Under the pieces are notes generated by a model. It searched no databases, was not told the DNA's origin, and worked only from the letters and a program-made list of their open reading frames with translations. From the NCBI GenBank assembly GCA_942491805.1, contig CALOCG010000022.1, positions 60,240-124,239 on the forward strand: DNA of 64,000 nucleotides, in the 5' to 3' direction. The translations under genes were made by a program, and so were the position numbers. The stretch comes from Nitrospinota bacterium (GTDB lineage: Bacteria; Nitrospinota_A; UBA7883; JADGGD01). This document shows, in pieces, positions 2,926 through 46,194 of the stretch (positions within the stretch are counted from its first letter, which is position 1; every line of letters begins with the position of its first letter).

Positions 2926-3540
2926 CTAGTTACTGGCCAAATAGACCCGCATGACCCCGCCGCCACCGGCGGCGTATTTGACCTTCCCTCTGATGGCGTT
3001 CGTCGCGGTGGCCATACCGGGATCCATGATGGCGTCGAGGGCGTCGAAATCGGCCGCGGCGACACCGGTAAGGGTCAGCCAGACGATCCGTCGCCCGGCG
3101 GCGACGTCGTTGCTGGTGTTGTCGTCGAACGAGATCGAGGTGCAGTTGCCGGCGGCCGCGTTGGCCCCTGCGGCGGCGCAGTTCTCGATACTGGGAACGG
3201 CGCCTATGGAGGTAAGCCCGCTCACCGGCTCGATGTAGGGTCCCTGCCACCGGGCCCACAACCCGAGCACCACACCGCCACTGGTCTCAAGCTGAGTCTG
3301 CCAAGCGGTGTTATTGGCGGCGGCGATGACGCCGTTGGCGTCGAGCGGGTTGAGGGTGCGCAGATCCTTGTACCAGTCGGCGACGCCGGAGGAGAGCCCC
3401 CGAATGTCGCCTGCCATCCGCGTGACGCGGGAATCGCTGATGACTTTAAAAATCTTGGGGGCCACCATGGCGGCCAGAATGGCGATGACGGCCAGAACGC
3501 CGATCATCTCGATGAGGGTGAAACCGCCACGTCGCTTCAT
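2926..3540 (-). CDS. Prepilin-type N-terminal cleavage/methylation domain protein (pilin / pseudopilin)
   Basis: N-terminus MKRRGGFTLIEMIGVLAVIAILAA is the class III signal peptide (G|FTLIEM) followed by a hydrophobic helix. It is the first gene of the pilin-gspE-gspF operon. Confidence 0.85.
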   Translation of the reverse strand: MKRRGGFTLIEMIGVLAVIAILAAMVAPKIFKVISDSRVTRMAGDIRGLSSGVADWYKDLRTLNPLDANGVIAAANNTAWQTQLETSGGVVLGLWARWQGPYIEPVSGLTSIGAVPSIENCAAAGANAAAGNCTSISFDDNTSNDVAAGRRIVWLTLTGVAAADFDALDAIMDPGMATATNAIRGKVKYAAGGGGVMRVYLASN

Positions 3541-3875
3541 GTCTCTACTTTCCCATGCTTCTTTTCAGTTAAACTACACCCACCGGGTCAAAAGTGATAC
3601 CCATCCCGGCAGACGACACTCTATTTTCCCCAACCCTTTCGACAATAGGTAAAAATCGGGGCACTGTCAACATATTTCACAGCAAGGCCTTTTATATCAA
3701 GGGATGAACTGAACACTTGCCCTATAACAACGCTCATTTATGTTTCATTTCGTGTCGTTCTGGATTAGAACGAATGTAAAATGCCTTTCTTTCTCATCGA
3801 CTGGCTGGACGGATCGACGTGGCCTTGGTATCATTGCGGCTTCTTTTAAACGTATTCATTACCGGAGTGTGACGC

Positions 3876-4553
3876 ATGAGTTCGTTCGAACGGTTGACTC
3901 TGTCAGCGATGGCCCTTCTCTTTGTGGCCGGATGCGATCTCTTCTCGACCGGAAGCGCCGCAAAGGCGACCTCCACCCCCGCGCCGGTGAAGAACTCATC
4001 CGTATCGGTCGCAAAAACACCCGATGCGGCTACCGCACCTACGACCAAAAAGGAAAAGACCATGCAAGAAGTCGCTGTCATCTCGACCCGCCACGGCGAT
4101 ATCGTCATCCGCTTCCGGGACGACCTGGCCCCCAAGCATGTGGAGAGCTTCAAGAAACTGGTGAAAGAGGGCTTCTATAACGGCACCTCGTTCCACCGGG
4201 TGATCCCCGGCTTCATGATCCAGGGGGGAGACCCGGAATCGAAAAACGCCGACAATCGCTCGATGCACGGCACCGGCGGGCCCGGCTATTCCATCAAAGC
4301 CGAGTTCTCCAAAACCAAACATACCCGCGGCATCGTCTCGGCGGCCCGCTCCATGGACCCCGACTCGGCCGGTTCCCAGTTCTTCATCTGCGTGGCCGAC
4401 TCCCCGTGGCTCGACGGGCAATACTCGGTCTTCGGCGAAGTGGTCGAAGGGCTCGATGTGGCCGACAAGATCGTCAACGAACCGCGCGACGCGCGGGACA
4501 ACCCGAATGAGCGGGTCGAAGTGACGATGACTTTGGAAGAACGAGAACTTTAA
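3876..4553 (+). CDS. Peptidyl-prolyl cis-trans isomerase, cyclophilin type, lipoprotein
   Basis: Lipobox LFVAGC. Cyclophilin core motifs FHRVIPGFMIQGGDP and GSQFFI. GGAG RBS. Confidence 0.9.
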   Translation: MSSFERLTLSAMALLFVAGCDLFSTGSAAKATSTPAPVKNSSVSVAKTPDAATAPTTKKEKTMQEVAVISTRHGDIVIRFRDDLAPKHVESFKKLVKEGFYNGTSFHRVIPGFMIQGGDPESKNADNRSMHGTGGPGYSIKAEFSKTKHTRGIVSAARSMDPDSAGSQFFICVADSPWLDGQYSVFGEVVEGLDVADKIVNEPRDARDNPNERVEVTMTLEEREL

Positions 4554-4579
4554 GAGTCCGCTCCTTCATCTATCGACAA

Positions 4580-4612
4580 CGCCCGGCTCTTCGGAATCGG
4601 GCGTTTTTATTT
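4580..4612. terminator. Bidirectional rho-independent terminator between the convergent cyclophilin and methyltransferase genes
   Basis: GC stem CGCCCG...CGGGCG followed by TTTTTATTTT. The methyltransferase TAA stop overlaps the T tract. Confidence 0.6.
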
Positions 4613-5296
4613 TCGCAACGCCATATAGGCGGAGAAGCGAAGGCTCTGACTGAACCGTTGGACGGTGGGGAACCCGGCTTCGGCGAGAAGCCGCATCAGG
4701 GTCGTTTCGTCGATCGGGTCGATCTCCTCTTTGATCTTGGCCATTTTCTCCCGCAACGGCGCCGGGTCGGCGCCTTTCAGGATGGCGTAGGTCCCCCACC
4801 CTTTCTCCAGCGCCTCCTTTAACGGCGACGGGTCGTGGCGCATGACGGCGGCCAGCATCAACGGGGCGCCCGGTTTCAGACGACGGGCGATCTCGACCAG
4901 ATGTTCCCGTTTCCCGTCGTCGCCACGGATGAAGTGCAACACCAACATCGAGGTGGCGCCGTCCCACCGGGTGTCGGTCGGGAGGGTGTCGAGATGGCCG
5001 TGGTGAATGTCGGGCGCCTGTTCGCCGTGACAGCGACGCCGGGTGATGGCGACCATCTGCTCCGACGGATCGACGCCGACGAGCCGCCATGCCGGGTTGG
5101 CGGCGCGCAAGGTAACCAGTTCTTCTCCTCCGCCGCAACCGACCACCAATATCGACTTTTCGCCGGGGAGGGCGTCGACCAGCAACGCGGCGGTCATGGC
5201 GTGCATCGCTTCGTAACCGGGTATGCGGTGGCGTATCTCGTCGACATAGGTCGCCCCATGATCGCCGTCGAAATCGAGTTCGTTTCCCATGGTCAT
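4607..5296 (-). CDS. Class I SAM-dependent methyltransferase
   Basis: Motif I ILVVGCGGGEEL, Rossmann-like layout, 229 aa. Confidence 0.75.
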   Translation of the reverse strand: MTMGNELDFDGDHGATYVDEIRHRIPGYEAMHAMTAALLVDALPGEKSILVVGCGGGEELVTLRAANPAWRLVGVDPSEQMVAITRRRCHGEQAPDIHHGHLDTLPTDTRWDGATSMLVLHFIRGDDGKREHLVEIARRLKPGAPLMLAAVMRHDPSPLKEALEKGWGTYAILKGADPAPLREKMAKIKEEIDPIDETTLMRLLAEAGFPTVQRFSQSLRFSAYMALRK

Positions 5297-6678
5297 CGCT
5301 CCTGATGTTTCTTGCCGAGGTCGTGGGCCAATCCTCGCATCTCGGCGGCTTCGTCATCCCGCCCCATTCTCTCCAACAGGTCGCCGAAGGTAACGAGCCA
5401 CCCGGCGGCGGTCAGGTCGTCGACGGCGCCGTCTTTCCACATGCCGATAGCGTCGATGTAGTGCCCCTCGGCTTCCATATACTGCCCGGCGCCAGACAGA
5501 TAGCGGGCCAACAGCACCCCCGACTCGGCGGTGCGCCGATGTCCGGCGCCATGAATGTTATGGTCGAGCTTGTGGGCTTCGCGCAGACGCCGTTCGGCCG
5601 CTTGCCCCGGATAGAGGGTCTCGTCGATCAGCGCCAAGGAGCGTAGCGTATCCGATTCGAGTTCCGATCCGGCCGGGTAGAGGTGTCGGGCGATGGCAAG
5701 AGCGTCGGTCAGTTTTTCGTGGGCGTCGAGATATTTCCCCTGCCGAAAAAGGAGAAGGCCGTGACGGCGGAGGATACGGGAGACTTCGTCGGAGTTTCGT
5801 CCGTTCTGCCGTTCGGCGACGACGAGGGCTTCTTTGATGGCGGTTTCGGCGGCGGCGTAGTTTTTCTTTTCGTTGGCCATTTTTGCGGTCAACAAGAGGA
5901 GAGACATGTAGTGGGGATTGAGCGGCCCTTTCTTTTTAAAGAAACCGGCGCCCTCTTGGGCCGCTTTCACGGCGACCTCGTCTTTTCCCGCCGCATGGGC
6001 CGCCGTCGCCCACGACGTCATACTCTCGCCGAACCGGGGGCTCTCTTTCCCTTGCGCCTTCACCGACGCCCCGATGACCTGTTCGGCCTCGTTGACGTTT
6101 CCTTTGGCCAAAAGCGCGCGGGAAAGATTGTTGGCCAACGCGGCGGAACGGTCGTTCCCCTCTTTCCCCCCTGCGCTCCTGTGGCGAGCGACCGCTTTTC
6201 GCAAATAATCTTCGGCCTCGTCGTAAGCGCCGCTTTTGAGCGCCGCCTCTCCGGCGCCCTCCAGATAATCGACGTTATCCGGTTCTCCGGCCAACGCCGC
6301 TTTGTAATAAGCGAGCGCTCCGGCGTAATCACCCCGGTCGGCCGCATCATCGGCGGCGTCGGCCCGTATCTCGCCGGGGCTTTTGTCGATCGTCGGATCG
6401 GACGAATCGGAGGTGGCGGGGGTGGCGCCGGTCGGGTCGCCCGTCCCTTCGACGCTCCGGCTCGACGAAGCGGGGCCGCTTCCCCCGCCGCCGGCTTTGC
6501 CTCCCCCTCCTTTCGACTTCCCGAGGCTCCCCCCTTTGATGGCGATCTTGGCGTCCTGATTTTGCATGAAGAGAAAGTAGGTGAAATAGCCTGCGCCACC
6601 GACGGCGACGAGGATGACCATGGCCGAGAGGGCCAGCTCAATCTGTTTTTGGGGGATTTTTTTCAGGAAGTCGAACAT
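5293..6678 (-). CDS. Membrane-anchored tetratricopeptide-repeat protein
   Basis: N-terminal TM helix, Gly/Ser-rich linker, then several TPR-like A/Y-rich repeats (AYYKAALAGE..., AEDYLRKA...). Confidence 0.7.
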   Translation of the reverse strand: MFDFLKKIPQKQIELALSAMVILVAVGGAGYFTYFLFMQNQDAKIAIKGGSLGKSKGGGGKAGGGGSGPASSSRSVEGTGDPTGATPATSDSSDPTIDKSPGEIRADAADDAADRGDYAGALAYYKAALAGEPDNVDYLEGAGEAALKSGAYDEAEDYLRKAVARHRSAGGKEGNDRSAALANNLSRALLAKGNVNEAEQVIGASVKAQGKESPRFGESMTSWATAAHAAGKDEVAVKAAQEGAGFFKKKGPLNPHYMSLLLLTAKMANEKKNYAAAETAIKEALVVAERQNGRNSDEVSRILRRHGLLLFRQGKYLDAHEKLTDALAIARHLYPAGSELESDTLRSLALIDETLYPGQAAERRLREAHKLDHNIHGAGHRRTAESGVLLARYLSGAGQYMEAEGHYIDAIGMWKDGAVDDLTAAGWLVTFGDLLERMGRDDEAAEMRGLAHDLGKKHQER

Positions 6679-20492: not shown

Positions 20493-22031
20493 ATGCCAAC
20501 CCGCCGAGATTCGATGAGCAAAACCAACGTCACCTTATGCGTTCCGCCGCAAGGCTATTTCGCCGAGCGATGGAAAGAGTCGTCGATGCCGACCCTCGGC
20601 GTCCTCTCCATGGCCGCCTGTCTCGAAAAAGAGGGGTTCGGCATAACGTCGCTACCGTCACACATCTTGCGGATGACCATAGAGGACATTGTCAAGCATG
20701 TGACCGACCACAAACCGGAAATCTTCGGCGTCACCGTCACCACCGAGAACCGGTTCGACGCTTTCGACGTGGCCCGCGCCGTCAAACGGGCCCGCCCGGA
20801 GACCAACGTCGTCTTGGGCGGCCCCCACTGCACCACCACCGCTCTGGATACGCTGACCCACATCCCGGAGGTCGACATGGTGGTCTCGGGCGAAGGGGAG
20901 GTGACCATCGTCGAACTGGCCCGGGCCGTCGAAGCGGGTGGAGGGTCGGCGGCGTTTGCGAGGATCGACGGGCTCTCGTTCCGCGACGGAGACCGGATCG
21001 TTACCAACGGGTTGCGCGGCAAACTCCCCGACCTGAACGTCCTGCCCCTTCCGGCGCGGCACTTGGAAGATATGGCCGCCTATAACTTCTTCGTCGACGT
21101 GCCGGGGCGAGGGAAACATCCTGCGGCCAACATCATGACGAGCCGTGGTTGCCCGTTCGACTGCAACTTCTGCGCGACCCCGACCAACTGGGGGCGAAAA
21201 GTGCGAGGGGTGTCGCCGGAGCGGGTGTTAGAAGAGATCGAGCATTGCATGGAGCGGTACGGAACCAAGGCGATCTGGTTCTACGACGACACTCTTAACT
21301 ACAATCCCAAACGGCTCGAAACGATCTGCGACATGATGATCGAGCGGAAACTCGATTTGAGCTGGTTCTGCGAAGTGAGGGTCGACGCCCTTGACCGACG
21401 GCTGTTCGACAAGATGGTGCAAGCGGGGCTCTTTCATTTCGGGTTCGGTGTCGAAAGCGCCAACGAACGGGTCTGCCGCGATGTCATCGGCAAAAAGGCG
21501 ACCTTGCAGCAGGCCATCGACGTCATCGACTGGGCCAACGAGATGCAGGTGACCCCCAATCCCTTTTTCATTTTCAGCCACCCGACCGAAACGTGGGAAG
21601 AGGCGATGGAGACCCTCGAATTCGCCGAGAGCCTCCGTGGACGGGCGCAATGCTCCATGGCGATCTTGCACGTCTACCCCTCCACCGAACTGTGGGATCG
21701 AGCCATTGCAGAGAAAAAAATCCCCGCCGATTTCACCTGGACCAACCCCGACGATCCCCGGATCGTCGAGCTCCCCGAAGCGCAAGGGCGCATTCCGCTC
21801 TACATGGATAAACTGACCTGGTTTCAGATTTCGACCATCATCTTCCGGTTCAGCCAGTCTGCCATGAAGGTGAGCCTCTGGAGCAAGGTGACGAAAGCGG
21901 CGAAACGGATCAACAGTTGGCGCCGCTTCGTCCAGTATTTCGTTATGGGGCTGGCGCTGATCAAGCTGAAACTTGCGCGTGGGAAGAAGAAGGGGAACGA
22001 CGACAAGATGGCCAAGCCTGCGGAGTTTTGA
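20493..22031 (+). CDS. B12-binding domain radical SAM protein (class B radical SAM family)
   Basis: N-terminal cobalamin-binding Rossmann region (LGVLSMAACLEKEGF...), then a radical SAM core (SRGCPFDCNFCATP). Start taken at MPTRRDSMSKTNV (GAAGAG RBS). The track ORF 20277.. is over-extended. Confidence 0.8.
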   Translation: MPTRRDSMSKTNVTLCVPPQGYFAERWKESSMPTLGVLSMAACLEKEGFGITSLPSHILRMTIEDIVKHVTDHKPEIFGVTVTTENRFDAFDVARAVKRARPETNVVLGGPHCTTTALDTLTHIPEVDMVVSGEGEVTIVELARAVEAGGGSAAFARIDGLSFRDGDRIVTNGLRGKLPDLNVLPLPARHLEDMAAYNFFVDVPGRGKHPAANIMTSRGCPFDCNFCATPTNWGRKVRGVSPERVLEEIEHCMERYGTKAIWFYDDTLNYNPKRLETICDMMIERKLDLSWFCEVRVDALDRRLFDKMVQAGLFHFGFGVESANERVCRDVIGKKATLQQAIDVIDWANEMQVTPNPFFIFSHPTETWEEAMETLEFAESLRGRAQCSMAILHVYPSTELWDRAIAEKKIPADFTWTNPDDPRIVELPEAQGRIPLYMDKLTWFQISTIIFRFSQSAMKVSLWSKVTKAAKRINSWRRFVQYFVMGLALIKLKLARGKKKGNDDKMAKPAEF

Positions 22032-22056
22032 TTTTCGCTTTCATTTCGCATATAAT
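22028..22056 (+). promoter_or_regulatory. Sigma70-like promoter candidate for the TcmP-like gene
   Basis: TTGATT (22028-22033), 17-nt spacer, TATAAT (22051-22056), about 30 nt before the ATG. GGAG RBS at 22076-22079. The -35 overlaps the stop codon of the upstream radical SAM gene. Confidence 0.45.
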
Positions 22057-22085
22057 TGCCGTACACGTTCTTTCTGGAGCTTGAT

Positions 22086-23183
22086 ATGGCAACGCCAAAA
22101 GATACTCTTTGGCCACTCGATCCGCATACTTTAGCTAAGCATGAGATTCTCAAACGCTACTTGGGTGCATGGTTTCCTATCATCAGCAAGCGCAACAGAA
22201 GGATCGTCTATATCGATGGATTTTCTGGACCAGGGCGCTACCAAGGAGGCGAACTAGGCTCACCAATAATTGCTCTTGAGGTAGCCCGAAATCATCGCAA
22301 ACCAATCGATGGTGAAGTGGTCTTTTGGTTCGTGGAAGGACGTGCAGATCGCCTCGAACACCTACAACAAGAACTTGCTCAGATAGAAGTCCCAGCCCAC
22401 TTCAAGGTCTCTGCCAATCCTGGAAGGTTTGAACAAAAATTTGAGGCGATGCTCGATTCAATCGATGAAAAGGGAAAGTCCTTAGCTCCTGCTTTTGCCT
22501 TTATTGACCCTTTCGGATTTTCAGGGATTCCATTTGAACTAATAGAGAGACTAATGGGATATAAAAGCTGTGAAGCTTTCATTAACTTTGCTGTTGATCC
22601 GATCAACAGATTTCTCGATCATCCCGACGAAGCAATTGTGCAACACATCGTTGAGGCATTTGGGACTGATGAGGTGAGAGCCATTGCGAAGTCGCAAGGG
22701 GACAGAATCTACAAATTACGAGAGCTATACCAGTCTAGACTTAAGAGTGTCGCAAAGTATGTTCGTTACTTCGAAATGCGCGACAAACGAAATCGCGCAC
22801 AATACCTGATGTTTTTTGCCTCTAATGATGAACTAGGACATCTTAAGATGAAAGAGGCTATGTGGCGAGTTGACCCTTATGGCGATTTCAGCTTTTCTGA
22901 TGCCACCGCTCAAGGGCAGAGCGTCCTATTTGGCGCAGAGGAAACTGCCATTCCGCAGTTGGCCGAGACTCTGCGCAAGAGATACACTGGACAGGCCAAT
23001 CTCAAGGTTCTCATTATGAGAAAGTTTGTTGAAAACGAAACCTCCTTCCTTGCCAAACACATGAAAGCGGCCCTTAGGCAGGAAGAGACCGAGAATAGGA
23101 TTATGGTTTCCGAGTTGAAAAGTGATGGCAAAAGGAGACGGAAAGGCTCGTTTCCAGATGAGGTCACGTTAAAGTGGGTATGA
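22086..23183 (+). CDS. tcmP: TcmP-like protein (usual partner of three-Cys-motif / DUF5131 proteins), AT-rich foreign gene
   Basis: 365 aa from [33 protein letters not shown]. Its stop overlaps the start of the DUF5131-like gene by 4 nt (ATGA). Its GC content is far below the flanking DNA. It has methyltransferase-like motifs (see findings). Confidence 0.55.
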
Positions 23184-23893
23184 ACTCGACCATCGAATGG
23201 ACCGAGGCGACGTGGAATCCGGTCACCGGATGCACCAAGACCAGTCCCGGTTGCAAACATTGCTACGCCGAGCGGATGTCGAAACGGCTCCGCGCTATGG
23301 GCCAGCCGAACTATCAGCACGACTTCACCGAGGTCACCACCCACGAACGAATGCTGGAAGCCCCGTTGCGGCTCCGTAAACCGCATACGATCTTCGTCAA
23401 CTCCATGAGCGACCTGTTCCATCGGGACGTGCCGACCGAGTTCATCCATAAGGTCTTCGGCGTGATGGAGAAGGCCGCACGCCACCGCTTTCAGGTACTA
23501 ACGAAGCGTTCCGGGCGGCTAAGAACGTTAAGCTACTCCCTATCATGGAGTGAGAACGTCTGGATGGGAGTCAGCGTGGAAAGCGCCAAATACACTCATC
23601 GAATCGACGACCTTCGCGCTACCGACGCCGCCGTAAAGTTCCTCTCCATCGAACCGCTTCTCGGCCCAATCCCCCATCTCGATCTTCGCGGTATCGACTG
23701 GGTGATCGTGGGGGGCGAATCGGGACCGGGAGCGCGGCCCATGGACCCTGAGTGGGTCATCGACATCAAAGAGCAATGTGTAGATCGTGGCGTCCCCTTT
23801 TTCTTCAAACAGTGGGGTGGCGTGCAAAAGAAACGGGCCGGTCGAATGCTCGAAGGCCGAATCTGGAATCAGATGCCAACTCTCACCCCATAA
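23180..23893 (+). CDS. Three-Cys-motif protein, phage Gp37/Gp68 (DUF5131) family
   Basis: N-terminus [31 protein letters not shown] carries the characteristic C-x6-C-x2-C triad after a WNPxxGC box. Translationally coupled to the upstream partner. Confidence 0.6.
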
Positions 23894-23960
23894 CCACCCC
23901 CGCAGGATCGCGACGCGTGGCTCCGTCCAACAAGCCACTGACAAACGTTATCGAGCCGGT

Positions 23961-23974
23961 CAGGCCTTCGCCTG
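23961..23974. terminator. Short GC hairpin between convergent genes (weak terminator candidate)
   Basis: CAGGC-CTTC-GCCTG, immediately next to the EF-hand gene stop. Confidence 0.3.
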
Positions 23975-24535
23975 TTAGCCGAACCAGTCGCTCGCCCCAT
24001 CCTTCTGCGGCGACTGATACCAAGGGGAGCTGTAGTTCCCGCCGAGGAGCGACATCGCCCCCTCCAACGCCACACTGCGGTAACTTTGCGTCGGCGCCCC
24101 CTGTTGAGCCATTCCCTTTTCCATATGGGTCGCCAACTCACCGGCGTCGATTTCGCCGTCGCGATTGGTATCGGCCACATCGAATCGTTCGGCGCTAAGC
24201 CCCGACTCTTTGGCGGTCATCCCCCCGTTCCGGTCGGTGTCCTTCATCGCCAGCAACGACCGGGCCAAGGCGGAGAGATCGACACTCCCGGCGGAGGCCG
24301 TTTTCCGTCCGGCCTGCTGTCGGGCGATCTCGTCGGCGGTCAGTTTCCCGTCACCGTCGGCGTCGGTCTCTTTGAACCGGGTGGCGCTTATTCCCGCTTC
24401 CCGGCTCGACAAAGTTCCGTCACCGTCGTCGTCGCGCATCTTCACCAGCAACGTCCCCTGCTGGGAGCTGGTCAGACTCCCGTTTCCGGTGGCGCCGAAG
24501 AGAGACGAAAGAGAGGCCGATTCGAACGAGTTCAT
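23975..24535 (-). CDS. EF-hand calcium-binding protein (four EF loops)
   Basis: Start MNSFESASLSSLFG with an AAGGAAAG RBS. Loops DDDGDGTLSSRE, DADGDGKLTADE, DTDRNGGMTAKE, DTNRDGEIDAGE. The track ORF is over-extended at the 5' end. Confidence 0.75.
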   Translation of the reverse strand: MNSFESASLSSLFGATGNGSLTSSQQGTLLVKMRDDDGDGTLSSREAGISATRFKETDADGDGKLTADEIARQQAGRKTASAGSVDLSALARSLLAMKDTDRNGGMTAKESGLSAERFDVADTNRDGEIDAGELATHMEKGMAQQGAPTQSYRSVALEGAMSLLGGNYSSPWYQSPQKDGASDWFG

Positions 24536-24685
24536 GATCTTTCCTTTCAACGGAACAACGCACCCCCTTATCTCGCAACTTTCGAGCCAACAATAAGCGC
24601 TTGATTTACATCTATTTACCTCGTGGCTACCCGATGAAGAAAGGCAACTTTTTCCCCCACCCCCTCTATCTGCTATTCTTCCCCC

Positions 24686-25864
24686 ATGAAACTCCTTTTT
24701 CTCGCCCCCCAACCCTTCTTCGAGACTCGGGGGACGCCGATCAACATCCGGCTGATTCTCCAGTCGTTATCGACCTTGGGGCATACCGTCGATCTTCTCT
24801 GCTACCCCCACGGCGACGACGAGACGATCCCCGGCGTCACCATCCACCGGGTGGTCAATCCGCTCTGCGTCGGCCCGGCGCCGATAGGGCCGTCGGGAAA
24901 AAAAATATGGTTCGACCTGTTCATGTTCCCCCACGCCTTTTGGTTGATGCTGACCGGTCGGTATCAGGCGATCCACGGGGTCGAAGAGGCCGGGTTTATG
25001 GCGTGGCTTTTGGCGAAAATCTTTCGGGTCCCCTACGTCTTCGATATGGACTCCCACATCGCCGACCAACTCGCCTATTCGAAACTGCCGATCCCATCGT
25101 GGGGAATTCGGCTGGTGGAAAAAATGGAGGGCGCCGCTCTGGCCTCCGCGACGCGGGTCTTGACCGTCTGCCAAGCCCTCTCCGACGTGGCGGCCCGCTA
25201 TACGTCGCTCGACAAGATCGTCTTGATCGAAGACATCCCGCAGGAATACCCCGAAGCCCCCGATGGAGTTACCCCGGCGTCGATCCGGGCGGAACTCGGT
25301 CTCCCGACCGACGCCCCGGTGGTTCTCTATACCGGGAATCTGGAATCGTATCAGGGAATCGACTTAGTCATGGAAGCGGCGCCGATGATCGTGGCTGGGG
25401 CGCCCGACGTACGGATCCTCATCGTCGGCGGGGGGGGGGTGTCGTTGGATCGTTATCGCCGTCAGGTCGGAAGGGCCGGGCTTGACGGAAACGTCATTCT
25501 GGCCGGTTCCCGTCCCCTGTCGCATATGCCGGTTCTCTACGAGATGGCCGATATCCTCCTCTCCCCCCGCCTCTCCGGGACCAACACCCCCCTTAAAATC
25601 TACTCCTATTTGGCCACCGGCAAGGCCATCGTCGCCACCGATCTGCCGACCCATACGCAGGTTCTGACCCCCGAGGTGGCGAAACTGGCCCCGCCGGAAA
25701 AGTTGGCTTACGCCAAAGCCGTTCTGTTATTATTGAAAGAGGGAGCGTTGAGGCGCTCTCTCGGAGAAGCGGGACGGGCGTTGGTCGAAGAAAAACATAC
25801 CCGCCGAATTTTCTCCGACAAGATCGACCGGCTTTATCGGTCGGTCGCTGAATCGATTCAATAA
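24686..25864 (+). CDS. Glycosyltransferase family 4 (GT-B fold)
   Basis: 392 aa. N-terminal acceptor-binding half. C-terminal GT1/GT4 signature (VLYTGNLESYQGIDL, E...LLSPRLSGTNTPLKIYSYLATGKAIVATDL). Confidence 0.85.
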   Translation: MKLLFLAPQPFFETRGTPINIRLILQSLSTLGHTVDLLCYPHGDDETIPGVTIHRVVNPLCVGPAPIGPSGKKIWFDLFMFPHAFWLMLTGRYQAIHGVEEAGFMAWLLAKIFRVPYVFDMDSHIADQLAYSKLPIPSWGIRLVEKMEGAALASATRVLTVCQALSDVAARYTSLDKIVLIEDIPQEYPEAPDGVTPASIRAELGLPTDAPVVLYTGNLESYQGIDLVMEAAPMIVAGAPDVRILIVGGGGVSLDRYRRQVGRAGLDGNVILAGSRPLSHMPVLYEMADILLSPRLSGTNTPLKIYSYLATGKAIVATDLPTHTQVLTPEVAKLAPPEKLAYAKAVLLLLKEGALRRSLGEAGRALVEEKHTRRIFSDKIDRLYRSVAESIQ

Positions 25865-25907
25865 GATGGGGGTCGGTCACCGGCCCCCTTTTGTGTGTGG
25901 TAGCTCC

Positions 25908-26987
25908 ATGTCACTGGTCAAACAACTGGCGAATCTGGCCCTCTTCAAAATGGGGGCCGTCCACCCCGTCGCCGGGCCGATGAAGGTGCAGTGGGAGCTG
26001 ACCTACCACTGCAACCTGAAATGCCAACATTGCCAGATCTGGCGGATACCGTTGAGCGAAATCAGGGCCGACACCCTCACCTTCGATCAGCAAAAAGCGA
26101 TCATCGACGACCTTGCCGCCAACGACGTCCGCCACGTATCGTTCTCCGGCGGAGAGATGTTCCTGCAAAAAACCGTCTACGCGTTAATCGCCTACGCCAA
26201 GAGCAAAGGGATGAAAGTCGGCGGCAACTCCAACGCCTTTCTGATCAACGAAGCCATCGCCCAAAAGATCGCCGACAGCGGTCTCGACTTTCTCTATATA
26301 TCGCTCGACGGTGACAACGCCGAGACCCACGACCAGATACGCGGCGTGCCGAAAGCGTTCGAACGAGTCTTCACCGGGGTCAAGAACCTGCGGGCGACCG
26401 CTCCCGCGCTGAAGATCTTTTTCAACACGACGATCAACCGCTTAAACGTCGGCCAACTGGTCGGCGTCGGCGCCCGTGGTCGTGAAGCCGGGGTCGACGG
26501 GTTGACCATCGAGATGACCAACACCTTCGACAAATATTCTCCGGCCGAAGGGCTGACGTTGCTCGACGAACAGATTCCGCTCCTCCACGCGCAGATCAAA
26601 GAGCTGTTCGATAAATATGGCGATCTTCTGCCGCATCAGATGGGCTATTTCGACGAGTTCGAGACCTATCTGAAGAACCGCGACGAGCTTTACAAATACC
26701 GTTGCGTGGCCGGATACACATCGGCCCAGATTCATCCCAACGGCGATCTCTACGCCTGCCCGGTGGCCTTCGAGAAACTGGGTAATCTGGCCGAGACGAA
26801 GTTCGCCGATCTTTGGTACGGCGAGCGGGCCGACAAGGTGCGGACCGATATCAAAGAGGGACGCCACCCGATCTGCTGGATCACCTGCGTCTCTCCGGCC
26901 AACCAATATCTCTCGTATCTCTCGCCGACGAAGTTCCATAAACTGCTGGCGCCCTCGACACTGAAGCATATTGCGCGGAAGCTGTAG
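25908..26987 (+). CDS. Radical SAM / SPASM-domain protein
   Basis: CNLKCQHC radical SAM triad about 25 aa from MSLVKQL. C-terminal Cys-rich SPASM region (YRCVAGY...YACP...CWITCVSP). Confidence 0.8.
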   Translation: MSLVKQLANLALFKMGAVHPVAGPMKVQWELTYHCNLKCQHCQIWRIPLSEIRADTLTFDQQKAIIDDLAANDVRHVSFSGGEMFLQKTVYALIAYAKSKGMKVGGNSNAFLINEAIAQKIADSGLDFLYISLDGDNAETHDQIRGVPKAFERVFTGVKNLRATAPALKIFFNTTINRLNVGQLVGVGARGREAGVDGLTIEMTNTFDKYSPAEGLTLLDEQIPLLHAQIKELFDKYGDLLPHQMGYFDEFETYLKNRDELYKYRCVAGYTSAQIHPNGDLYACPVAFEKLGNLAETKFADLWYGERADKVRTDIKEGRHPICWITCVSPANQYLSYLSPTKFHKLLAPSTLKHIARKL

Positions 26988-27134
26988 ATATGAGGAAAAC
27001 GTCACCGAGTCGGGCGATACAAGCGGGCTTGCGCCTGTCTTTTCTTCCCGTTACCGACAAGAGCCGTCGTCTTCGCCGACTCCCCGTTGGCAAAAGCGTC
27101 ATACCCCCTCTTTCGACGCCGCAGGTAGTTTTCC

Positions 27135-28130
27135 ATGGATAAGTTAACCCACTTCGCCAACCTCGCTTCCATCTACGGTAGCTATCTCAAACGAGAAGAG
27201 GTCGTCAAGAAGCTCCCGACCCGGGTCTGGATCGAGCCGACCCCGGCCTGCAACCTCTCGTGCGGTCATTGCCCCCACGGGCACGATATCCCTTTCGACA
27301 AGGGGCTGATGAAATGGGAGCTTTTCACCAAGATCGTCAACGAGCTGACCGGGTCGGTCTACGACGTGAACCTCTTCCACCGGGGGGAGTCGCTGATCCA
27401 CAAGCGGCTCGCCGACATGGTCGCCTATTGCGCCGACCGGGGGATGCACACCCGTTTGCATACCAACGCTGGACTCATGGACGAGACGTGGAGTAGAAAG
27501 TTGATCGAAGCGGGGCTCGACTACGTTTCGTTCTCTTTCGACGGCTACACCAAAGAGACCTACGAGAAGAACCGGACCGGCGGTTGTTACGAGACGACCA
27601 TCAAGAACATTCAGACCTTCCTTAAGGTTAAACACGAGCTTGGCTCAAAAGTCTTCACCATCTTGCAAGTAATGGAGCTAGGCGAAGAGGCCGAAGGGAA
27701 AGAAGAGCGGAAGAACGCTCTCATGGCCCATTTCGACGGTCTCGGGTTAAGCCGTTTCGTCGTGCGCACCCCCCACAACTGGGCGGGAGATTTCGACGAG
27801 TTCGGACACGGCGTCGGCGACGAGCCGAGTTTCAAGTTCACCCCCTGCACCTTCCTGTGGTACGCCATGACCATCTTCTACGACGGCCGTGTGGCGCCCT
27901 GCCCGCAAGATTTCTACGGCAAGATGATCATGGGGGACGTGTCGAAGCAGAGCGTCGCCGAAGTCTGGAACGGAGAGCCGATGCGTGCGCTTCGTCGCCG
28001 GATGAAAGAGCGCGACGTGGCCGGACTCGCCCCCTGCAACAGCTGCGACATCCTGAACCGGAAAACTTTCATGGGGGTACCGACCAACTATCTGGGCGCC
28101 TTCGTGAAAGACAACCTCCTCCTGAAATGA
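27135..28130 (+). CDS. Radical SAM / SPASM-domain protein (tandem paralog)
   Basis: CNLSCGHC triad. SPASM Cys cluster (CTFLWY...APCPQD...CNSCD). Confidence 0.8.
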   Translation: MDKLTHFANLASIYGSYLKREEVVKKLPTRVWIEPTPACNLSCGHCPHGHDIPFDKGLMKWELFTKIVNELTGSVYDVNLFHRGESLIHKRLADMVAYCADRGMHTRLHTNAGLMDETWSRKLIEAGLDYVSFSFDGYTKETYEKNRTGGCYETTIKNIQTFLKVKHELGSKVFTILQVMELGEEAEGKEERKNALMAHFDGLGLSRFVVRTPHNWAGDFDEFGHGVGDEPSFKFTPCTFLWYAMTIFYDGRVAPCPQDFYGKMIMGDVSKQSVAEVWNGEPMRALRRRMKERDVAGLAPCNSCDILNRKTFMGVPTNYLGAFVKDNLLLK

Positions 28131-29170
28131 GCGGTTGCAAGGGATGCCCCGAACCGGGCGGTATGCCCGACGATCCCCATAAAGGAAAAGGGCGGATCGT
28201 CGTCACCGGCGCCACCGGCTTCGTCGGCAAACGTCTATGTAAAGCGCTGGAGGAGCGGGGTTACACCCTTCGCATCCTCGCCCGCTCCGACAAGGAAGAC
28301 CCGTACTTCCGCTCGCTCAACGCCGAAATCTTGCGGGCCGACGTCACCGACCCCGCGATGGTCGGCGATCTGATGAGCGGCGCCGACGGGGTGGTCCATA
28401 TGGCCGCCGTGGTGGGGGGCGCCGGGATGAGCGACGACCAATTCCGCGAAGTCCATGTGCGAGCGACAGAACGATTACTTGAAGGGGCGGTCCGCGCCGG
28501 AATCAAACGATTCCTCCATGTCTCGACCATCGGCGTGCTCGGCGCCACCGGTCGGACGCCGGTCGACGAGACGGCGCCCTACAACGTGAAAGACATCTAC
28601 CAAATCACCAAAGCCGAAGGGGAGCGAGCGGCCCTCGCCCATGACGGGAACGAAGGGATGCGGGTGACCGTCGTCCGCCCGGCCGCCGTATACGGCCCCG
28701 GCGACCGACGATTGTTGAAACTCTTCCGCTCCGTAGCGAGAGGAACCTTTCGGATGATCGGCGACGGGGAGACGATGATCCACCCGGTCTATGTGGACGA
28801 TCTGGTCGAGGGGATGGCTTTGGCTTTCGAGAGCGAGCGGGCCGGAGGACGCGCCTACATTCTTGGCGGCCCGGAACCGGTCTCGCTCAACCAATGGGTC
28901 GATACCATCGCGGCGAAAGCCGAACAGCCGCTGTCGGCCCTATCGATCCCCTACGCCCCGGTATGGGTCGCCGCCGTTATCTGCGAAGCGCTCTGCGGGG
29001 TTCTGCGGATCGCCCCCCCCCTTTTTCGTCGTCGGGTCGATTTCTTCGTGAAAGACCGGGCTTTCTCCATCGACCGGGCGCGGAACGAATTGGGCTACGC
29101 CCCGAAGGTCGATCTCAACGAAGGGACGGAACGGACGCTGGCTTGGTACAAGGAGGAGGGGCTGCTTTAA
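28128..29170 (+). CDS. NAD-dependent epimerase/dehydratase family protein
   Basis: Start MSGCKGC overlaps the upstream stop (TGAAATG). Rossmann motif VTGATGFVGKRL. A YxxxK-like catalytic region. Confidence 0.8.
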
Positions 29171-44496: not shown

Positions 44497-45102
44497 CTAG
44501 TTACTCAGTTTGAGCTTCTCTATTCTTGAATTCATCATACGTGTGACCTTACGATGCTGATCACCAATCACCGTCACATATTGGCTAACTTTCTCATCAA
44601 ATTCTGAATCACCAGCCATCGCTACCGCCATTTCGCTCAAGCGTTCGATCTCATCATTCAGTTCATGGTCAAAATACATTCCCAAGGTACCTCTTCGTAT
44701 CGCTTGCAACTCCCCCAACTTAGCAAGCTCATTCCAAATCTTTTTGTAGTCAGGGGTTTGCGCCATCTTATTTACATGCAATGAGTGCATTTGGTTCAGC
44801 TTTACAACCATTGCCGTGGTTTCTTCCAAAACCTGCTCCATGGCAATGAAGGTTCGCTCGACTACTTTTTCATGAGTCATCAGGGACGCTTTTTTCGTTT
44901 CCAGCTTCTCTGCAAAGGAATGCTCAATCCCTTTTAGCCCTTCATGAATCGTTTTGATGTCGTTGAGCTTTTCGAGTTGAGCGGCTATCTCGCCAGCCTT
45001 TCCAAGTCGGCTATCGAGATAAGGCTTAAGAATCAAAAACCAAGCGGCGGCAAAGAGGGCGCCGGAGATGCCGGATGACGACAGAATTATTTCCCAGTTC
45101 AT
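44497..45102 (-). CDS. Hypothetical membrane-anchored coiled-coil protein in a low-GC islet
   Basis: 201 aa with one N-terminal TM helix and a helical cytoplasmic domain. AT-rich codon usage unlike its neighbours. Confidence 0.6.
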   Translation of the reverse strand: MNWEIILSSSGISGALFAAAWFLILKPYLDSRLGKAGEIAAQLEKLNDIKTIHEGLKGIEHSFAEKLETKKASLMTHEKVVERTFIAMEQVLEETTAMVVKLNQMHSLHVNKMAQTPDYKKIWNELAKLGELQAIRRGTLGMYFDHELNDEIERLSEMAVAMAGDSEFDEKVSQYVTVIGDQHRKVTRMMNSRIEKLKLSN

Positions 45103-45264
45103 CTGCTGATTCTAGCATGACGATTAAATATCGCTTGGAGTGGCTTCGCAATGCCGAAAAACTTATCGACGTCGCAGAAGATATCGTTATGGCTGTGGAT
45201 GGTTGGGGGACAGGATGACGATCCACTCTTTCGTGGGAGCAGGTACCCAAAGGCCCTTCTCGCA

Positions 45265-45304
45265 CCAAAGGCCTTGAGGGGGTCTCCTCCCTCAAGGCCT
45301 TTGG
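45265..45304. repeat. Perfect 16-bp inverted repeat with an 8-nt loop, then a T-rich tract
   Basis: CCAAAGGCCTTGAGGG-GGTCTCCT-CCCTCAAGGCCTTTGG. CCAAAGGCC also occurs twice just upstream as a direct repeat. Confidence 0.55.
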
Positions 45305-45399
45305 CATAAAGTTCTTTTTGCTTCTTTTTACCCCCGGTCAGTTGAACTGGATTCCGTTCCGGGGGTACTTCGTCTTTCAAGAAAAAGAAGGTCTTCGTT

Positions 45400-46194
45400 T
45401 TAATCATCCATCGACATATCGAGATCGTCTTCGTCGTGGATGAACTTGCGGAGTTTGGCGCGGAGGCGCAAGACGCATTTCGTATGGATCTGGGAGACCC
45501 GCGATTCGGTGATTCCCAACACCTCGCCGATCTCCTTCATGGTCAGCTCCTCGTAGTAGTAGAGCGAGATGACCAGCCGTTCCTTCTCCGGGAGCATGTC
45601 GATGGCCTGGGCGATGATCCCCCGGATCTCCTCGATCCGGGCCAGCGTCTCCGGGTCGGTCTCTTTCGTCCCGGCCAGGACCTCCATCACGTCCCGTTTT
45701 TCGCCGTCCTTGTCGACCCCGCCAAGGTCTTCCACCGACATGATCGACTGCCCCGCCGCCCGGTTGAGAAGTTCGTAGAACTCCTCCAGCGACACCTCCA
45801 TTTCGTCGGCCACCTCTTGGTCGTCCGCCGGGCGTCCCAGTTTCTGTTCGAGCCGCGCGTAGGCCGAAGAGATCGACGTCGCCCGTTGTCGGACCGACCG
45901 GGGGACCCAATCTTGCGCCCTCAGCTCGTCGAGCATGGCGCCCCGGATACGAATCTCGGCGTAGGTTTTGAACTGGGTGTCTTTGTCGGGATTGAACTTT
46001 TCGATGGCGTCGATCAGGCCGATGACTCCCGACGAGATGAGGTCGTCCAGTTCGATATGAGACGGAAGACGGACCGCGAGCCGATGGGCGATGTATTTGA
46101 TAAGGGGGGAATACTCGACGATCAGCTTGTCGGCCTCCGGCGTGCCGAGCTTCAAGCCACCCGCCGGCGGTTCCGAGTAATATGCCTTGCTCAT
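45400..46194 (-). CDS. fliA: Flagellar sigma factor FliA (sigma-28)
   Basis: Sigma70 regions 2, 3 and 4 (YAEIRIRGAMLDELR, LTMKEIGEVLGITESRVSQI). Confidence 0.9.
   Translation of the reverse strand: MSKAYYSEPPAGGLKLGTPEADKLIVEYSPLIKYIAHRLAVRLPSHIELDDLISSGVIGLIDAIEKFNPDKDTQFKTYAEIRIRGAMLDELRAQDWVPRSVRQRATSISSAYARLEQKLGRPADDQEVADEMEVSLEEFYELLNRAAGQSIMSVEDLGGVDKDGEKRDVMEVLAGTKETDPETLARIEEIRGIIAQAIDMLPEKERLVISLYYYEELTMKEIGEVLGITESRVSQIHTKCVLRLRAKLRKFIHDEDDLDMSMDD

Follow-up and report, generated by a model that had tools for sequence, protein, structure and literature searches.

Gene organization and insertion site

The window, the whole 64-kb stretch of Nitrospinota DNA analysed here, carries a pair of overlapping genes encoding TcmP (a three-Cys-motif partner protein) and a DUF5131 (Gp37/Gp68-family) protein. 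The pair lies with a third gene between two host genes, and the features of the locus are as follows.

20526..22031, + strand: flanking host gene for a B12-binding radical-SAM enzyme (Pfam B12-binding and Radical_SAM); left border
22028..22056, + strand: candidate sigma-70-like promoter TTGATT-N17-TATAAT (-35 at 22028-22033, -10 at 22051-22056)
22032..24685, no strand: inserted segment with the TcmP, DUF5131 and EF-hand genes, delimited by blastn against loci L101, L102 and L096
22076..22079, + strand: GGAG ribosome-binding site, read from the sequence, 6 nt 5' of the TcmP ATG
22086..23183, + strand: TcmP gene (ATG start, 365 aa, TIGR04474)
22086..22901, + strand: TcmP N-terminal core, residues 1-272; predicted class I SAM-methyltransferase fold, with RlmJ its nearest match
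22893..23111, + strand: TcmP C-terminal winged-helix domain, residues 270-342 (PF22560 GMT-wHTH)
23180..23893, + strand: DUF5131 gene (ATG start, 237 aa, PF07505); radical-SAM-like fold
23231..23263, + strand: codons of the Cys triad C18-x6-C25-x2-C28, from the translation; presumed [4Fe-4S] ligands
23975..24535, - strand: EF-hand protein gene within the insert (Pfam EF-hand families)
24686..25864, + strand: flanking host gene for a glycosyltransferase (Pfam Glycos_transf_1/4); right border

As a preliminary description of this DNA had stated, the end of TcmP and the start of DUF5131 share the letters ATGA at 23180-23183, a 4-nt overlap. The TcmP ATG at 22086 is backed by homologues that begin with MATPKE. 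An alternative DUF5131 start, the GTG at 23174, gives a 10-nt overlap like that of the homologous loci L001 and L003 and may, on sequence grounds, be the true one; with either start, the two genes are translationally coupled. The promoter and ribosome-binding site proposed earlier for the gap in front of TcmP are both found there, the former as a candidate in terms of function. The candidate promoter matches 10 of 12 consensus positions, its -35 hexamer shares nucleotides with the stop codon that ends the radical-SAM gene upstream, and a match of this type is unique within the 64-kb window, where shuffles predict 0.

A conserved operon opens with the radical-SAM gene, whose product shares 90% identity with a protein from a Nitrospinae MAG; the glycosyltransferase gene comes second. 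In three related Nitrospinota loci (L096, L101 and L102) these genes follow one another with 14-236 bp between them. Blastn homology to the three loci stops by 22029-22031 (21973 for L096) and picks up again at 24686, the glycosyltransferase ATG. Because these relatives lack 22032-24685, the whole cassette is an insertion. Judged by this synteny, the pair is a horizontally acquired module within a 2.65-kb insertion that splits a conserved Nitrospinota operon. As it sits within a conserved operon, the cassette needs a promoter-like element of its own, and it carries one. The nearest relative, L094, has a different gene (AlbA_2/HATPase_c_4) at the insertion spot. The EF-hand gene is missing from the syntenic site in relatives as well; nothing indicates a joint function with the pair, and no third gene is conserved beside the pair across 70 loci. 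Searches for direct or inverted repeats flanking the insertion returned only short chance matches, and there are no tRNA genes within the 64-kb window. The cassette's neighbours in the window are biosynthetic and phosphate-regulon genes, with no defence island.

Family assignment and predicted folds

TcmP matches TIGR04474 at 213.7 bits (cutoff 53), over profile positions 1-262 of 263. Its core carries K18-H19, motif I (D44-G50) followed by R51-Y52, G58-S59-P60, and a motif IV-like D141-P142-F143-G144. The nearest structural relative of the predicted protein is RlmJ, the 23S rRNA m6A2030 methyltransferase (PF04378/DUF519; PDB 6qe5, 2oo3); Trm1, CmoA, TYW2 and Trm5, likewise among the rRNA/tRNA methyltransferases, also resemble it. 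E. coli RlmJ and TcmP have four motifs in the same order: K18-H19, Y-x-D-x-x-x-G-x-G-R-Y, G-S-P-x-I-A and I-D-P. However, the two proteins are only ~15% identical, motif IV is DPPY in RlmJ and DPFG in TcmP, and TcmP is without RlmJ's helical insertion after motif I. TcmP in turn has an extra ~100-residue region and a C-terminal winged helix and, unlike RlmJ, it is mobile and has a radical-SAM partner.

Profile methods do not recover this relationship. TcmP reaches none of the Pfam methyltransferase models, and its core finds no PF04378 match at E <= 10, against a score of 424 bits for E. coli RlmJ. An hhalign comparison of the TcmP profile with E. coli RlmJ aligned 24 residues, covering motif I alone, at a probability of 5%. 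Given this weak result, homology between TcmP and RlmJ rests on fold and motifs rather than on a significant profile match. Single-sequence and profile searches of PDB sequences returned chance matches only. The winged-helix domain scores 25.8 bits with PF22560, slightly below the cutoff of 27, and is also among the precomputed domains of P0001; in the conservation profile, this region is the least conserved stretch of TcmP.

DUF5131 matches PF07505 at 344 bits against a gathering threshold of 28.9, over profile positions 1-243 of 243. Its N-terminus contains W12-N13-P14 and the triad WNPVTGC(18)-x6-C(25)-x2-C(28). At least 94% of 50 homologues retain W12-N13-P14, the triad and C200, and the catalytic-type residues are kept to the same degree among 50 homologues whose identity ranges over 26-99%. 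Spore photoproduct lyase is the best match to the predicted fold; other radical-SAM enzymes, RlmN among them, come next, and the fold has the partial TIM barrel of the radical-SAM type. DUF5131 is also given as a radical-SAM subgroup in the literature (PMC9477430). It resembles these enzymes in predicted fold and in its N-terminal three-Cys motif, to which it adds the invariant C200. In contrast, identity to spore photoproduct lyase is ~8%, DUF5131 is far smaller (237 aa), and the canonical CX3CX2C is replaced by Cx6Cx2C; PF04055 gives no match at E <= 0.01, and the Cys-motif loop is modelled at low confidence.

The preliminary description had named both families and pointed to the WNPxxGC triad, and these assignments stand. 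Its TcmP motifs YIDGFSGPG and FIDPFGF are present, at residues 42-50 and 139-145. Of the proposed amino-methyltransferase motifs, motif I is common to RlmJ, and the motif IV-like sequence reads DPFG and not (D/N/S)PP(Y/F/W).

Composition and codon usage of the cassette

The TcmP gene has 46.2% GC (GC3 0.451) and the DUF5131 gene 57.8% (GC3 0.710), in keeping with earlier estimates of ~45% and ~58%; the background, taken earlier as ~65%, is 60.4% for the whole window. Intergenic positions 22032-22085 have 39% GC. Against 40 host genes (GC3 0.804 +/- 0.033), TcmP has strongly foreign codon usage (z = -10.6), and DUF5131 also lies below the host (z = -2.8 to -3.8). The first 100 codons of DUF5131 (z = +0.2) and the EF-hand gene (z = -0.7) are host-like. 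An inherent AT-richness of TcmP imposed by its amino-acid content is ruled out: its amino-acid composition resembles that of its closest relatives in high-GC hosts, and their genes have a GC3 of 0.80-0.88.

GC falls directly after the stop of the upstream radical-SAM gene, as had been described, and homology to relatives also ends there, at 22029. The rise had been placed at the junction between TcmP and DUF5131. DUF5131 is indeed richer in GC, but the GC3 climb starts within TcmP, at about codons 272-289 (nt ~22900-22950), with the best changepoint at codon 289 and not at the junction. The winged-helix region has an intermediate GC3 of 0.58. Within DUF5131, GC3 steps from 0.82 to 0.63 at codon 103 (permutation p = 0.035). 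DUF5131 itself appears to be mosaic and, in the reading favoured below, holds a further recombination patch.

Two earlier claims about the history of the locus fare less well. Only the partner gene had been thought foreign, but three relatives lack the EF-hand gene together with TcmP and DUF5131, and the codon usage of DUF5131 deviates too. That TcmP was replaced recently cannot be shown, its nearest relative among 5.8 billion proteins being 64% identical.

Distribution of the pair and its defence context

TcmP is a large family, with 7,382 clusters at 50% identity, and the pair is patchily distributed over many bacterial phyla, some archaeal phyla and temperate phages. Of 80 species-representative loci, about 66 have DUF5131 next to TcmP, arranged in four different ways, and linkage reaches ~90% among loci with enough flanking sequence. 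The proposed linkage of the pair is thus supported. Pairwise identities of the two proteins correlate (r = 0.57, Mantel p = 0.001). Among the phage proteins, longer Gp37/Gp68-type members (phiE125, Squirty, prophiGD43A-5) have no TIGR04474 neighbour, and a TcmP partner for every phage DUF5131 is thereby ruled out.

The adjacent genes match PADLOC models PDC-M30A (E = 5e-55), PDC-M30B (3e-115) and PDC-M41B (3e-119). By these profile matches, the pair belongs with the candidate defence systems PDC-M30/PDC-M41, for which the defence function is itself a candidate. It agrees with catalogued pairs of this kind in that both HMMs score far over threshold, the adjacent genes overlap, as they do in most of those pairs, and the motifs are conserved. 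It differs from them in being solitary within a biosynthetic operon, not in a defence island, and in the unlike codon usage of its two genes. Elsewhere, the pair adjoins a PglZ/SNF2 (BREX-like) cluster and an SNF2/DUF1156-methylase/DUF499 (methylase/helicase) cluster. A PADLOC census of 115 neighbouring ORFs from 32 loci found scattered MADS, type II and type III R-M, Nhi, AbiO and HEC-06 genes, which shows presence only, as the census has no baseline and no enrichment is claimed. Temperate Gordonia phages carry TcmP within the prophage lysogeny module, immediately 3' of the immunity repressor. In another Gordonia phage cluster, defence is conferred by genes expressed along with the repressor (PMC6426606), and in S. 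meliloti a TcmP gene is two locus tags away from the Hna defence gene (PMC12445080). The defence or modification context that had been suggested is thus supported by the PDC-M30/M41 match, the BREX-like and methylase/helicase neighbours and the lysogeny module. A literature search on TcmP, DUF5131, PDC-M30/M41, PF22560, and RlmJ with radical SAM found listings and no functional study. The CarolAnn defence paper deals with genes other than TcmP and DUF5131.

Exchange of TcmP beside a conserved DUF5131

Four near-isogenic Gordonia phages provide a case of partner swapping. Their DUF5131 proteins are 93-97% identical and their metalloproteases 95-97%, whereas the adjacent TcmP alleles share 21-25% identity, and all three allele types pass TIGR04474. 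Nucleotide identity breaks at the end of DUF5131, which is the gene junction. The repressor adjoining TcmP varies too, so part of the variation stems from the usual mosaic character of the immunity region. These phages support the preliminary description's general notion that partners are swapped. At the Nitrospinota site, by contrast, all of 22032-24685 is absent from the relatives.

Composition points in the same direction across the family. In 34 of 44 loci, DUF5131 has the higher GC3 of the two genes (Wilcoxon p = 2.5e-6); counting against exchange, GC3 agrees between them in ~85% of loci. Two unrelated genomes, those of L042 and of the complete chromosome L068, show low-GC TcmP islands a single gene wide. 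In these comparisons, the claim that TcmP has repeatedly been replaced by very different versions across the family, while DUF5131 stays, holds.

A conserved catalytic gene whose neighbour is exchanged, at one and the same locus, for highly divergent alleles recalls R-M systems with exchangeable specificity subunits, such as type I HsdS. The likeness is limited: the pair lacks a nuclease, HsdS-like target-recognition repeats and, in its vicinity, any recombinase or apparatus for inverted-repeat shuffling, and it is the variable partner, TcmP, that carries the methyltransferase-like fold. Compared with R-M, BREX and DISARM, the two-gene window cassette lacks any effector such as a nuclease, PglZ or helicase.

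Proposed mechanism and origin

The reading that we favour, at a probability of roughly 55%, is that the locus holds an acquired TcmP-DUF5131 module whose proteins act jointly on nucleic acid, with an exchangeable TcmP, and that the present chimera arose through allele exchange. We infer that the role of the pair is nucleic-acid modification in phage-host conflict. Under the proposed mechanism, TcmP and DUF5131 would act together on one nucleic acid. The winged helix and DPFG pocket of TcmP would bind and position the target base or nucleotide, possibly with methylation by TcmP, and DUF5131 would use a [4Fe-4S] cluster and SAM for radical chemistry on that target. The result might be a protective mark or damage to invader DNA or RNA. 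TcmP would then be an exchangeable specificity module and DUF5131 the conserved catalytic core, and the GC3 series of 0.45, 0.71 and 0.80 for TcmP, DUF5131 and host would reflect exchange of TcmP alleles between lineages of unlike GC.

The strongest competitor, to which we give somewhat less than even odds, concerns origin. The cassette may have been imported whole and already chimeric, with recombination between TcmP and DUF5131 having occurred in a donor or mobile element and no swap in this genome, such that its GC contrast is a fossil of the donor. Such an import accounts for the absence of the entire 22032-24685 segment from three relatives and for the departure of DUF5131 as well as TcmP from host codon usage, and the phages on which swapping is seen could have carried finished chimeras. 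However, the host-like first 100 codons of DUF5131 and the host-like EF-hand gene fit local recombination or long residence better, and no donor exceeds 64% identity for TcmP or 76-85% for DUF5131.

Two other functions appear improbable. DUF5131 could, like viperin, take a free nucleotide as its substrate, with TcmP methylating or tailoring the product into a small antiviral or signalling nucleotide. We doubt this, because the best structural match of DUF5131 acts on DNA and those of TcmP act on RNA, TcmP has a winged-helix domain, and a hypervariable partner better suits recognition of diverse macromolecular targets. Slightly less likely still is a housekeeping pair, an RlmJ-like methyltransferase plus a radical-SAM enzyme, that modifies rRNA or tRNA and has no phage role. 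The rRNA/tRNA methyltransferases closest to TcmP, the radical-SAM RNA modifiers such as RlmN among the DUF5131 matches, and window surroundings that are no defence island would all suit such a function. Against it stand the absence of the pair from the relatives' syntenic site, a patchy taxonomy over many phyla with a best identity of ~64%, foreign codon usage, carriage in prophage lysogeny modules, TcmP alleles only 21-25% identical between near-identical phages, and the PADLOC entry, all of them unexpected in a housekeeping modifier. A chimera created in assembly or binning behind the low-GC gene, or chance behind the GC contrast, is very hard to credit, given flanks syntenic with relatives, an insert bounded precisely by a stop and a start codon, the same gene overlap in homologous loci, a z of -10.6 against 40 host genes and a like pattern in the complete chromosome L068.

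Within the favoured reading of an acquired module with an exchangeable TcmP, a more specific version is offered only tentatively. The pair might be a retargetable immune module in which the RlmJ-like subunit picks a DNA or RNA target, DUF5131 installs a novel radical-derived modification or lesion, and replacement of the whole TcmP gene, at the junction and between GC-distant lineages, tracks phages. If the general model of an RlmJ-like targeting or methylating subunit acting with a radical-SAM enzyme holds, radical-SAM chemistry on nucleic acids would join the repertoire of prokaryotic immunity or epigenetics, and a change of specificity through whole-gene replacement would be shown. The pair is widespread and already catalogued as a defence candidate; what is offered here is a testable RlmJ-like and radical-SAM model. 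The window copy is an ordinary, solitary member, and its value is that its compositional chimerism led to the family-wide pattern. The near-isogenic Gordonia phages, which differ essentially in their TcmP allele and can be cultured together with their host, constitute a natural experiment.

Family assignment and gene layout

The gene pair is real and correctly identified, and represents a further copy of an already catalogued candidate system. Profile searches bore out the family assignments of the preliminary description, placing the first protein (TcmP) in TIGR04474 with 213.7 bits against a cutoff of 53, and the second (DUF5131) in PF07505 with a full-length match of 344 bits. TcmP residues 270-342 also match PF22560, a GMT-like winged helix, at 25.8 bits, slightly below the cutoff of 27. 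The pair matches both components of PDC-M30 and of PDC-M41, two PADLOC candidate anti-phage systems in which subunit A is of the TcmP type and subunit B of the DUF5131 type. DUF5131 falls in phrog_2045; TcmP has no PHROG match. A literature search for either family found no functional study, and a listing of radical-SAM subgroups includes DUF5131 (PMC9477430).

Features of the locus
22028-22056, promoter-like TTGATT-N17-TATAAT, found once in 64 kb, against an expectation of none from shuffled sequence
22086-23183, + strand, TcmP ORF, 46.2% GC, GC at third codon positions (GC3) 0.451
23180-23893, + strand, DUF5131 ORF, 57.8% GC, GC3 0.710
23975-24535, - strand, EF-hand gene, host-like codon usage, not present at the syntenic position of three relatives

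The overlapping ORFs, the low-GC first gene, the promoter-like element and a GGAG 6 nt ahead of the TcmP ATG, all described earlier, are present in the sequence. Both ORFs share the ATGA at 23180-23183, where TcmP ends and DUF5131 starts; an alternative GTG at 23174, perhaps the actual start of DUF5131, would extend the overlap to 10 nt, as in homologous loci. The 54-nt spacer upstream of TcmP is 39% GC, and the mean over the window is 60.4%, lower than the background of about 65% initially estimated. Relative to 40 host genes of the window (GC3 0.804 +/- 0.033), TcmP deviates strongly in GC3 (z = -10.6) and codon-usage score (z = -13.8), and DUF5131 more mildly (z = -2.8 and -3.8, respectively).

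Insertion into a Nitrospinota operon

The flanking B12-radical-SAM protein is 90% identical to one Nitrospinae MAG protein and 75-78% identical to others, which identifies the host as Nitrospinota. In three comparison loci (L096, L101 and L102), the gene order is response regulator, nadC, B12-radical-SAM, glycosyltransferase, two SPASM radical-SAM genes and epimerase, with a gap of 14-236 bp between the B12-radical-SAM and glycosyltransferase genes. Nucleotide homology to the window stops at 22029 (L101 and L102) or 21973 (L096) and restarts at 24686, the glycosyltransferase ATG; 22031 is the last nucleotide of the radical-SAM stop codon. Therefore, 22032-24685, comprising TcmP, DUF5131 and the opposite-strand EF-hand gene, is an insertion into the operon. 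The proposal that only the partner gene, TcmP, is foreign is thus incorrect at this locus, because the relatives lack the whole segment. Its position inside an operon explains why the cassette has a promoter-like element of its own. No flanking repeats were found at the insertion edges, and no tRNA genes mark them.

The position after the radical-SAM gene is variable, since the nearest relative (L094:1656-3317, radical-SAM gene 90% identical) has an AlbA_2/HATPase_c_4 gene directly after it; the site appears to be a variable-gene hot spot. A gene of this kind is also found in a BREX-like cluster of another locus, L003. The interrupted operon, at 20526-29170 of the window, is conserved in Nitrospinota and adjoins nadC and a phosphate-regulon two-component system.

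Patchwork composition of the insert

The insert is a compositional patchwork.

GC3 of segments within the insert
TcmP core, codons 1-272: 0.41
TcmP winged helix: 0.58
DUF5131 5' part, codons 1-103: 0.82, host-like
DUF5131 remainder, after codon 103: 0.63
EF-hand gene: 0.78, host-like

A single GC3 changepoint fits best at TcmP codon 289. The internal step near codon 103 of DUF5131 has a permutation p of 0.035, and that within TcmP a p of 0.086; none of 52 other loci has a DUF5131 step as large as that of the window. The DUF5131 step points to a patch of recombination in the 5' part of that gene, where conservation is highest. The amino-acid make-up of the window TcmP matches that of its high-GC relatives, so its compositional difference sits in synonymous sites. 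Rival explanations are that the cassette was a ready-made chimera, imported as one unit, or that it is an assembly artefact.

Compositional contrast between the partners extends beyond the window. GC3 is higher in DUF5131 than in TcmP in 34 of 44 loci (Wilcoxon p = 2.5e-6), with a difference of at least 0.2 in five of the 44. In a Chloroflexota locus (L042) and a complete Dehalococcoidia chromosome (L068), a GC of 0.6-0.7 gives way to about 0.4-0.5 over TcmP exactly and rises again in DUF5131. The closest TcmP relatives (64%) match their own partner genes in composition. Two Nitrospinota MAGs (L024 and L025) have another TcmP-DUF5131 pair (58-60% identity), with GC3 of about 0.5 in both genes and flanks of 0.60 GC; these pairs are independent acquisitions within the same phylum.

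Linkage and partner replacement

DUF5131 adjoins TcmP in about 66 of 80 species-representative loci. Four layouts occur, the two genes being divergent, convergent or co-directional with either one first. Across 70 loci, no further gene is conserved alongside them; the largest neighbour family is present in four. Between loci, TcmP and DUF5131 identities are only moderately correlated (r = 0.57), and the nearest match of the window DUF5131 (73%, L060) has a TcmP partner just 41% identical to that of the window.

Whether only the partner varies was tested in the temperate Gordonia phages ThankyouJordi, Bosnia, Angelique and BaxterFox (L097-L100, ~3480-5350), whose gene order is integrase, HTH, metalloprotease, DUF5131 (forward), and TcmP and immunity repressor (both reverse). 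DUF5131 is 93-97% and the metalloprotease 95-97% identical among them, whereas the TcmP genes form three allele types sharing only 21-25% identity. All three pass TIGR04474 (125-187 bits); one is of the PDC-M30A type and another of the PDC-M41A type. An identity of 85-100% at the nucleotide level falls to background within ~60 nt of the DUF5131 stop codon. The partner swapping proposed for the window is right for the family as a whole and only partly right for the window locus. Part of the TcmP variation is ordinary immunity-region mosaicism, because the repressor varies too; nevertheless, Bosnia and Angelique share a TcmP allele (89%) despite having different repressors. Since near-identical phages pair the same DUF5131 with M30A- or M41A-type TcmP, it appears that PDC-M30 and PDC-M41 are a single system whose A subunit comes in alternative forms. 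The longer Gp37/Gp68-type proteins of phages phiE125, Squirty and prophiGD43A-5 have no TcmP neighbour.

Predicted folds and conserved residues

The predicted TcmP model (pLDDT 85.5) adopts a class I SAM-methyltransferase fold. TcmP resembles E. coli RlmJ in four motifs occurring in the same order: an N-terminal H-x-x-x-K18-H19, a 13-residue motif I stretch corresponding to YLDTHAGAGRYQ in RlmJ, GSPxIA, and IDPFGF (IDPPYE in RlmJ). The TcmP residues of these motifs are kept in at least 94% of 50 homologues (26-99% identity), among which conservation is lowest in the C-terminal 85 residues. The hhalign alignment with RlmJ is limited to motif I. Membership of the Pfam RlmJ family was ruled out, as TcmP has no match to it. 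DUF5131, whose fold is likewise predicted, has a Cx6Cx2C motif; C18, C25, C28 and C200 are kept in at least 94% of 50 homologues, and the protein has no match to PF04055.

Genomic context and proposed mechanism

Close homologues lie directly downstream of a PglZ/SNF2/AlbA_2 cluster, and others adjoin an SNF2/DUF1156-methylase/DUF499 cluster with Vsr and Dcm. Further neighbours elsewhere match type III R-M, MADS, Nhi and AbiO, as scattered hits from which no enrichment is claimed. In the Gordonia phages, the repressor gene is immediately followed by TcmP, and in another cluster of Gordonia phages, defence is conferred by genes that are co-expressed with the repressor (PMC6426606). In S. meliloti, a TcmP gene is co-regulated with the Hna defence gene and lies two locus tags away from it (PMC12445080). 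No defence neighbours were found beside the window copy.

Both proteins may act jointly on DNA or RNA, with TcmP providing target recognition and possibly methyl transfer, and DUF5131 radical-SAM chemistry. The outcome would serve the prophage or host against other phages. Alternatively, the pair could be a housekeeping RNA modifier or belong to a small-molecule nucleotide pathway.

The closest TcmP relatives (61-64%; L013/L001:182-9939, L014, L015, L018, L045) have in common a large upstream gene of ~1000 aa, which may be functionally associated with TcmP in that subclade only. In L001, the upstream cluster comprises an SNF2 helicase, a DUF1156 methylase and a DUF499 protein, ending ~60 nt before TcmP. 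Elsewhere in the window, a low-GC islet at 44497-45407 (- strand) holds two overlapping ORFs (201 and 102 aa; GC3 0.52, z ~ -8.5 relative to host genes) with no Pfam or PHROG match, and is likely another foreign two-gene insert.
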